A stretch of DNA of 4,666 bases from a virus (taxonomy: Duplodnaviria; Heunggongvirae; Uroviricota; Caudoviricetes), in the IMG/VR virus record IMGVR_UViG_2531839646_000003; one strand, given 5' to 3'. How positions within the stretch are numbered: the first letter of the stretch is position 1; each line of letters opens with the position of its first letter. Shown here piece by piece: positions 3,001-4,666 of this stretch. The position numbers were made by a program.

Positions 3001-4666
3001 GGCGCGGATCTCTCCGCCCCCACACAGCCCACCATAATTCAGATGTGCGCGTGCATACGACAATAAAAAACACGCTCGCGGCGTGTATCTGTCGCGGTCT
3101 CTATCCAGGACGCCAATCCCGACGCCAGATTTTGCTGGCGTTTGAGGAATATAGCCCCGAATAAATCATCACGTCAATCACCTTGTTTTCCTCGCACGAT
3201 GTCTTAGCCACCGGATATCCCACAGGTGAGCCGTGTAATTGAAGGTTTTTACGTCAGATTCTTTTGGGATTGGCTTGCGTTTATTTCTGGAGCGTTTCGT
3301 TGGAAGGTATTTGCAGTTTTCGCAGATGATGTCGGTGATACTTCGTCGCTGTCGCCTCATGCAGCCCTCCTGACGCCCAGCCCGATCGCCATCAATGCCG
3401 CTTTGGATACGGTAGTAAACATCCGTCGAGGACTGATGAACGGTCGCCAAATCAGCAACATTGAGCCTTTGCTGTTTCCCTTCTTCTCCAGCCCTGTCGA
3501 TGGTTCGATAAAATTAATCCGTCCATCAGTGATGATGCGAACTTCGTCAACACTCTCCAGAGCCTTGCTGAACCATCCGACAGACATATCCTCTGGCACA
3601 AGCATCACTACCGTCTGTCGCTGTTGTATGCACTGCTCAGCGGCTTTTTCCACCCACGGCCTGATATTGCTGTACGGTGGGTTATTCCAGATTGCACCGT
3701 GGCTTATCCACTCAGAATTTAGCGCGTCGTCAGCCTCAGTTAGCCAGTGAGCGCACAGAGCGTTTTTGTCGCTCGCAGCTGAATCCAGCCAGAATCCAAA
3801 CTCAATATCCAGCGCATCAAAAAGCCAGAGCGGCGTTTGCCAGCAGTCCTTGTCGTGTGCTGGCGTATTTGATTTGATAGTCATGCAGCCTTCCCTTTTC
3901 GTTGTGACCATTCATACTCTCGCCGGGAGTCATCACTCCACCGCACGTTGCGCTCTGAGCCGAACCAGAACATGATTTCGATAAGCTCAGTCATGCTGGC
4001 CTTTCGCATTTTGCTGGTACGCACGCCAAGCATGACAACGCCACCGTCGATACCAGGCGCACTTCTTTGCTCCAGTTTTTTGGTCTTAAGCCACAGGGCA
4101 GTGAACAGGTCTTTCCAGTCTTCCGGCGCCAGCCGTTGACCATGCCATAGCACCTGACGCGAAACATCGTTCAGCATCGGCCACATGCGGTCATTCTGCG
4201 CTTTGCTGCGCTTGGGTTCTTTAACGTGGACTTCGTGGGGTGACTTGTCGTCGATGGGTAGTGAGAGAATGGCGTCTATGGCGTTATTTCTGATTGCTTC
4301 GTTGCGAAGCAGAAAGGTTTGCTTCATCTCCTGCTCTCCGGTTCCATTTTTCAGTAGCCGCAGCAACTGATGGTGCCCATGCCACCCTGGCTTCACAGAG
4401 GTCACATTCTGCATAGCCCCACACATCAATATTTATTCCGGCCTCAACCCACAGACGAGCATTACCGCCGCAAAACGGACATTCTTTTAGCTTTGGCTGG
4501 GTTAATGATAGGTCGCTCATGCTCACTCCTTCACTTAAAATCCAGACTCCGGATAATTCTGTTGCGCTGAAACTCATTGTTGAGTTTGAACAACCGTCGA
4601 AGAACACGGTCACGCGGATAGCGTCGTGCGGCAGGTGAATGCTCATACAACTCATCAAGCGGCAAA

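Follow-up and report, generated by a model that had tools for sequence, protein, structure and literature searches.

The sequence studied here is a stretch of 4,666 nucleotides (nt), called the window throughout, from the Caudoviricetes record IMGVR_UViG_2531839646_000003 of IMG/VR. All of its coding sequences lie on the minus strand, and among them a gene for a Lar-family protein (lar) and a gene for an orphan N6-adenine DNA methyltransferase stand on either side of ninB, with ninE next in line. By its gene content and order, the region reads as the standard ninR gene block of a 933W/VT2-Sakai-type Shiga toxin (Stx) lambdoid prophage of Escherichia coli: the Pfam families NinB, NinE, and NinF occur on one strand between P/tR2 and Q, with overlapping gene junctions, as in the ninR operon of lambda. 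The genes and junctions of the block are as follows.

4531..4666, minus strand: DUF7301 gene, 3' part (PF23975, 44.8 bits for the truncated product; its full-length counterpart in a 19.5-kb identical prophage context scores 91.4 bits; also annotated by the Prokaryotic Genome Annotation Pipeline, PGAP)
4284..4520, minus strand: lar-like gene, encoding a Lar-family protein of 78 amino acids (PF14354; TIGR03655; phrog_599, 134.5 bits)
4381..4390, minus strand: G-run within lar (from alignment and translation)
4284..4327, minus strand: out-of-frame lar/ninB overlap of 44 nt, between the lar stop (4284-4286) and the ninB ATG (4327-4325)
3881..4327, minus strand: ninB (orf), recombination mediator, 148 amino acids (PF05772, 163.9 bits; phrog_72, 205.4 bits)
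3881..3894, minus strand: ninB/methyltransferase junction, GGAAGGCTGC ATGA, comprising a Shine-Dalgarno (SD) sequence, the NinB Ala-Ala codons, and the overlapping stop/start; one copy of a 14-nt junction repeat
3357..3884, minus strand: orphan N6-adenine DNA methyltransferase of the phage 'Dam' family, 175 amino acids (PF05869, TIGR01712, NPPY motif)
3357..3370, minus strand: methyltransferase/ninE junction, GGAGGGCTGC ATGA; the other copy of the repeat, matching 3881-3894 in 13/14 positions
3178..3360, minus strand: ninE, 60 amino acids, function unknown (PF05322, 147.8 bits)

The DUF7301 gene extends past the window edge and adjoins lar upstream, its stop lying 10 nt before the lar ATG. The minus-strand sequence of 3890..3875 is GGCTGCATGACTATCA and that of 3366..3351 is GGCTGCATGAGGCGAC, so that the ATGA stop/start overlaps are exact both between ninB and the methyltransferase gene (3881-3884, within GGCTGC-ATGA-CTATCA) and between the methyltransferase gene and ninE (3357-3360, within GGCTGC-ATGA-GGCGAC). 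The 44-nt overlap of lar and ninB is found likewise in the PGAP annotation of an identical chromosome. An SD-like sequence precedes each of the four starts (AAGGAG, GGAG..AGGAG, GGGAAGG, and AGGAGG), the strong AAGGAG standing ahead of the lar ATG. The chain of overlapping genes ends with ninE, after which a promoter-like site comes next (3177..3148). An earlier note on this DNA had described a Lar-family gene and an N6-adenine methyltransferase gene flanking ninB, followed by ninE, with these two ATGA overlaps and the 44-nt overlap; the profile scores, all above the curated cut-offs, and the positions of starts and stops bear this description out.

The block is widespread. Positions 1132-4666 of the window are 100% identical to Stx2c phage Stx2_EH1904 and 99.6% identical to phage Nil2. 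Many chromosomes of E. coli O157:H7 and O111 contain positions 3150-4666 at 100% identity, and PGAP names the products there DUF7301, Lar family restriction alleviation protein, recombination protein NinB, phage N-6-adenine-methyltransferase, and NinE family protein; the same positions are 97-100% identical in >100 Stx phages (VT2-Sakai, 933W, Phi24B, Nil2). A partial match to these positions is present in 2173/5426 complete E. coli genomes, and 481/5426 (~9%) hold at least 80% of the stretch. Order and overlaps are the same in the nin regions of VT2-Sakai (orf30-orf33), 933W (L0092-L0094), Phi24B (lar-ninB-dam), and Nil2, with 97-100% nucleotide identity over 3357-4520; their methyltransferases are 99% identical to that of the window and their Lar proteins 97-100% identical, save frameshifted copies of the 933W type. 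Apart from the frameshifted lar of 933W, there is no difference of substance within the block.

In the identical prophage, the gene order is cI, cro, cII, O, P, a hypothetical gene, DUF7301, Lar, NinB, methyltransferase, NinE, antirepressors, NinG, phosphatase, Q, tRNAs, and stx2c. The N antiterminator is recognizable in its pL operon, and the tR2 terminator is annotated just upstream of the block in Nil2. Because the genes of the block lie distal to tR2, they are predicted to be N-dependent, pR-driven, and delayed-early, not immediate-early. Most junctions across the pR operon of this prophage are overlapping (O/P, NinG/NinI, NinI/Q), and the lambda nin genes are alike in this respect.

The methyltransferase is assigned with high scores: 216.4 bits against PF05869 (cut-off 28.1; profile positions 1-166 of 169) and 264.2 bits against the TIGR01712 equivalog (cut-off 97.05; positions 1-165 of 165). 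It carries the catalytic (D/N)PP(Y/W) motif IV as NPPY at residues 68-71. In agreement with the earlier note, which had seen no partner restriction enzyme, no restriction endonuclease is annotated in the 19.5-kb identical prophage context or in the whole of VT2-Sakai, and the methyltransferase is an orphan (solitary) enzyme. It shares 173/175 residues (99%) with VT2-Sakai orf32 (VT2-Sap34), the sole annotated methyltransferase of that phage. A six-frame scan of VT2-Sakai for open reading frames (ORFs) of at least 80 amino acids revealed no second ORF with a (D/N/S)PP(Y/F/W/H) motif besides orf32. Since VT2-Sakai has no other methyltransferase, orf32 would by elimination be the enzyme that REBASE names M.EcoVT2Dam. 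M.EcoVT2Dam is 'known to target' GATC (PMC6602927) and was reportedly cloned by Radlinska and Bujnicki in 2001. By its 99% identity to this enzyme, the methyltransferase of the window is probably GATC-specific, and the question of its target site has in effect already been answered in print for that relative (PMC6602927).

Like M.EcoVT2Dam and the HP1/T1 Dam family, the enzyme is a small (175 amino acids) orphan N6-adenine methyltransferase with an NPPY motif, although the homologs of T1-like coliphages are only ~30-35% identical to it. The record of 933W likewise notes a similarity to the HP1 and T1 phage methylases. By these searches, the enzyme is unrelated to the E. coli/T4 Dam family. We considered and rejected its identity with the 16S rRNA methyltransferase of Stx prophages (Gong et al. 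2023, PMC10810198; M.EcoPA8orf6770P). The latter, an unrelated MT-A70-type protein, has a DPPW motif, and its gene adjoins PNB-2 at ~3 kb from the phage end, whereas the methyltransferase of the window belongs to PF05869, has NPPY, and is encoded in the nin region, at ~16-17 kb in the PA-series phages. No DPPW ORF was found in the six-frame scan of VT2-Sakai. A sequence search for relatives of known structure gave chance-level matches only, for both the methyltransferase and the Lar-like protein.

The presumed target site is scarce in these genomes. Over the whole genome of VT2-Sakai, GATC is observed 159 times, with 269 occurrences expected from a Markov model or 237 from base composition, and the 19.5-kb prophage stretch has 38 observed and 82 expected. 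This under-representation persists despite the phage-encoded GATC methyltransferase. It fits a long-standing pressure on the site in enterobacterial phages. Deschavanne and Radman, in 1991, reportedly attributed the scarcity of GATC in enterobacteriophages to counter-selection by mismatch repair.

We observed that a near-perfect 14-nt direct repeat, on the coding strand GGA(G/A)GGCTGC-ATGA, brackets the methyltransferase gene (3357-3370 and 3881-3894). By count alone the repeat is not significant, with ~1-2 such 13/14 pairs estimated by chance in 4.7 kb. What counts is that copies lie in register at both junctions and that the motif recurs at the lambda junctions NinB>NinC, NinC>NinD, NinG>NinH, and NinI>Q. 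It is also present at HNH>methyltransferase in P27 and at NinB>NinE in PhiR12_2. The lambda ninR region has the same overlapping ATGA/GTGA junctions after a conserved GGAG..GCTGC motif; it differs from the window in carrying ninC and ninD in the place of the methyltransferase gene and in having no lar upstream of ninB. Kroger and Hobom (1982) are said to have called lambda ninR a 'chain of interlinked genes', and the genome papers on HK97, HK022, and HK620 reportedly discuss exchange at gene boundaries.

Lar and the methyltransferase are shown to be independently exchangeable mosaic cassettes by their distribution among phages. The methyltransferase (at least 95% identity) is present in 244 phage records, and at most ~118 phage records hold a contiguous Lar-NinB-methyltransferase block. 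Roughly half of the 244 records, among them Sf6, SfI, HK544, mEp043, mEp213, and P27-type phages, have the methyltransferase without Lar, and in the Lar-less phages homology breaks at window position 3890, the ninB/methyltransferase junction. Conversely, PhiR12_2 has Lar and NinB without the methyltransferase, NinB being joined straight to NinE. The junction motif exactly delimits the presence or absence of the methyltransferase cassette. As motif and overlaps recur across nin operons, the ATGA overlaps are a general syntax of the nin region and sites of exchange, and they do not set Lar and the methyltransferase apart as a unit of function. P27-type and some Stx2a phages carry an additional HNH endonuclease gene, placed between ninB and this methyltransferase gene with the ATGA junctions retained (P27 extract, 2025-2627); the window lacks it.

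The Lar-like protein scores 37.8 bits against PF14354 (cut-off 28.6) and 61.4 bits against TIGR03655 (cut-off 39.6). It has a four-Cys zinc ribbon, formed by CPFC at residues 14-17 and CDLC at residues 39-42, and a C-terminal WNRR motif. The original description of Rac Lar had it relieve EcoKI restriction and promote modification (King and Murray 1995, as cited in PMC4041452), and the same protein was later recast as RalR, a non-specific DNase toxin neutralized by the small RNA RalA (PMC4041452). The two proteins belong to the same Pfam and TIGRFAM families and share CxxC...CxxC and a C-terminal WN(K/R)R, and both genes have a recombination neighbor, recT in Rac and ninB in the window. By BLASTP, the likeness amounts to 36% identity over 58 amino acids, in which both Cys pairs align and EKWNRR pairs with ERWNKR. 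The RalR equivalog (NF007260) is not reached by the Lar-like protein, with 28.7 bits against a cut-off of 113. The window gene also differs from that of Rac in lying in the pR nin operon and not by recET/xis, and in a 14-residue protein tail encoded within ninB sequence. No sequence resembling RalA occurs in the window or the 19.5-kb identical context, although a trans-acting small RNA encoded elsewhere in the host genome is conceivable; RalA and the lar mRNA are perfectly complementary over 8 nt at most, compared with 16 nt in Rac. Neither an Rfam RNA family on or antisense to lar nor an antisense promoter/terminator pair over the gene was found.

This Lar occurs in 119 records of the phage collection, all of them E. 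coli Stx-type lambdoid phages, at identities of at least 83%. Its G-run reads GGGTGG in the window, G6 in VT2-Sakai, and G7 in 933W, EDL933-Stx, and Min27. The extra G of the latter three shifts the frame after CDLCEAR and deletes the conserved C-terminal segment, and tblastn splits the Lar match in two pieces in each of them. As 933W is viable with a frameshifted lar, an Stx2 phage can be viable without Lar. The frameshifted region is located at 1112-1471 of the 933W extract, and the G-run could be a slippage-prone site. The last 14 Lar residues are encoded by the 5' region of ninB in the other frame, beyond the Lar domain match, which ends at residue 63, and mEp213, a phage without Lar, is homologous only as far as window position 4328, one base 5' of the ninB ATG. 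For these reasons the 44-nt overlap seems to have arisen incidentally, when cassettes were joined at the start of ninB, and not as a device for coupling.

Overall, the locus is most probably a standard delayed-early nin block with an orphan GATC methyltransferase that completes Dam-type methylation and with an optional, independent Lar-like cassette. The genes are packed head-to-tail with overlapping stops and starts in the manner of lambda, the SD-GCTGC-ATGA motif at the junctions being a point at which cassettes are swapped between phages. The methyltransferase most likely adds N6-methyladenine (m6A) to GATC in replicating phage DNA, topping up a limiting supply of host Dam, and progeny genomes would leave the cell fully GATC-methylated. 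Protection would then extend only to nucleases that are sensitive to m6A and overlap GATC, such as MboI/DpnII-like enzymes, and to MutH acting on under-methylated DNA. The methyltransferase may also stabilize lysogeny. The Lar-like zinc-ribbon protein may bias EcoKI-type (type IA) enzymes in favor of modification, as described for Rac Lar.

Several points weigh against this account. The GATC specificity is carried over from a relative, and the equation of orf32 with M.EcoVT2Dam was itself reached by elimination. A GATC enzyme looks redundant in a Dam+ host, so any selective value would be conjectural. Translational coupling would follow from the ATGA geometry, yet each gene has an SD sequence of its own. 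What suggests restriction alleviation by the Lar-like protein is distant homology only, and a literature search found no restriction-alleviation experiment on this Lar ortholog group.

It is possible, though we hold it only tentatively, that the methyltransferase serves the physiology of phage and lysogen and not anti-restriction: full GATC methylation of rapidly replicating or recombining phage DNA would avoid cutting by MutH and binding by SeqA, and a supplement to Dam would favor stable lysogeny and so influence spontaneous induction and Stx output. The Phi24B copy, reported to be 100% identical to VT2-Sakai orf32, was detected as a protein with a lysogen-culture antiserum, its transcript level shifts upon induction, and Riley et al. 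(2012) proposed that it supplements host Dam, which is itself required for stable 933W lysogeny (PMC3342100). Expression in a lysogen culture may, however, stem from a minority of spontaneously induced cells. The low GATC count of VT2-Sakai and the position of the gene among the recombination genes ninB and ninG also agree with such a role. Another methyltransferase of Stx phages does control induction frequency (PMC10810198), but this enzyme, from Koudelka, is the unrelated MT-A70/DPPW protein near int discussed above and offers an analogy only.

Less likely still is the reading, going back to the earlier note, of Lar and the orphan methyltransferase as a counter-defense module, dedicated and expressed together, that counters type I and type II restriction by the host. 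Anti-restriction labels are conventional for both families, as in the PHROG and PGAP names. Similarly, lar carries this name in Phi24B and has been treated as a gene for restriction alleviation in Stx phages (Smith 2012, PMC3430580), and a 2025 study lists DefenseFinder calls of anti-restriction-modification methyltransferases together with restriction-alleviation proteins in enterohemorrhagic E. coli (EHEC) phages (PMC12502783), including phi367, whose Lar we found to be identical to that of the window. DNA modification on exit by an orphan phage methyltransferase is a recognized strategy (EcoSal review), and ~115-118 of the 119 Lar-bearing phage records also hold the methyltransferase. No lambda-type Ral was found in the pL operon of the identical prophage, where only N is recognizable, which would leave Lar as the sole candidate for restriction alleviation. 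Lambda Ral itself, a gene of the pL operon, shares with Lar only a postulated function, the enhancement of type IA modification (EcoSal review); the two have no sequence relationship, and Ral, at 24% identity to RalR, is 'not related' to it according to Guo et al. (2014; PMC4041452).

Against a dedicated module, the presumed GATC target duplicates the specificity of host Dam and has no overlap with the EcoKI site; as GATC is already methylated by Dam, a methyltransferase with this target would leave EcoKI-type and most type II sites unmasked. The high co-occurrence of Lar with the methyltransferase comes mostly from clonally related O157 phages, and it is offset by the many methyltransferase records without Lar, by PhiR12_2, and by the frameshifted lar of viable 933W. 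The overlaps, taken beforehand as the sign of a tightly co-expressed unit, are not specific to these genes and do not support that claim, belonging as they do to the syntax of the whole nin operon. Early expression, also claimed, stands insofar as the genes belong to the pR early operon, but by position they are delayed-early. Of the counter-defense set itself, the part that survives is that existing annotation labels both genes as anti-restriction genes; the GATC target, the distant and functionally disputed Lar, the independence of the cassettes, and the generic overlaps count against the rest. The anti-restriction reading is thus a restatement of existing annotation-level opinion on a feature that is real, ordinary, and already known.

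It would also be conceivable, if improbable, that neither gene is primarily an anti-restriction gene and that both products act with ninB and ninG on replicating or recombining phage DNA, where they might shield under-methylated intermediates from MutH, or newly recombined, unmodified DNA from type I attack, and so set the frequency of spontaneous induction and the Stx output of the lysogen. Least probable is that the Lar-like protein works not in anti-restriction but as a DNase toxin of the RalR kind, within a type I toxin-antitoxin system: the re-characterization of Rac Lar as an endonuclease with RalA as its partner, the present name of the NCBIfam equivalog (toxin), and the common zinc ribbon and C-terminal motif favor it, but the score far below the equivalog cut-off, the lack of RalA-like or other antisense RNA signals in the DNA scanned, and the position within a lytic operon, not at a stand-alone toxin-antitoxin locus, disfavor it.

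With the account of a standard nin block in mind, the locus carries little weight as a discovery, since it is common in E. coli genomes and its genes already bear these names in annotation. In practice it serves as a caution: the labels 'Lar' and 'Dam-like methyltransferase' invite an anti-restriction story, and care is warranted because GATC is the site of host Dam, the founder of the Lar family is distant and functionally disputed, and the overlaps are generic. A role of the phage Dam in the stability of Stx prophages, if true, would bear on Stx expression, a question already posed in the literature. A partnership of both genes with recombination, if true, would parallel the unrelated Stx-phage methyltransferase shown to set induction frequency.

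Directly downstream of ninE, on the minus strand at 2956-3177, lies an antisense-RNA module resembling P1 immI and Gifsy-1 IsrK, ahead of the ORF6N antirepressor gene antA (2903..2145). Its features are as follows.

3177..3148, minus strand: sigma70-like promoter (promoter-like site)
3154..3102, minus strand: c4-a1b1 target motif (45.9 bits, just below the gathering score of 46.7)
3141..3065, minus strand: isrK (74.7 bits), with a terminator hairpin at its end (3086..3070)
3039..2956, minus strand: C4 antisense RNA (66.7 bits)

The C4 gene lies between the copies of a 21-nt repeat (2934-2954 and 3098-3118), which may be the two target sites. The PGAP coding sequence for a 44-residue 'ash family protein' (2926-3063, minus strand; 8773-8907 in the 19.5-kb prophage stretch) overlies the C4 RNA gene and is probably a spurious ORF. 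Between antA and antB (1889..1209), which is likewise an ORF6N antirepressor gene, Rfam sRNA-Xcc1 matches at full length (1928-2011, minus strand; 79.3 bits, gathering score 53). This match lies downstream of a sigma70-like promoter that fits in 11/12 positions (2132..2103); the promoter is annotated in the Nil2 record as well, which calls ant 'disrupted by a putative bacterial retrotransposon'. The two antirepressor genes share a 127-nt stretch with 94% identity (1540-1666 / 2470-2596), and antA contains an in-frame 30-bp tandem repeat of 3.1 copies (2618-2711), giving the protein repeat QNLRVTLSNS.

Identity to Nil2 and Stx2_EH1904 ends at a mosaic breakpoint near 1132, immediately beyond the hairpin that terminates antB (1192..1171), and positions 1-1131 of the window form a mosaic module different from that of either phage. 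This left module holds a phrog_1511 ORF (733-1140), NinF, with a likely start at 740 that overlaps the upstream stop in ATGCTTAG, and a Rha/KilAC antirepressor gene cut by the window end.

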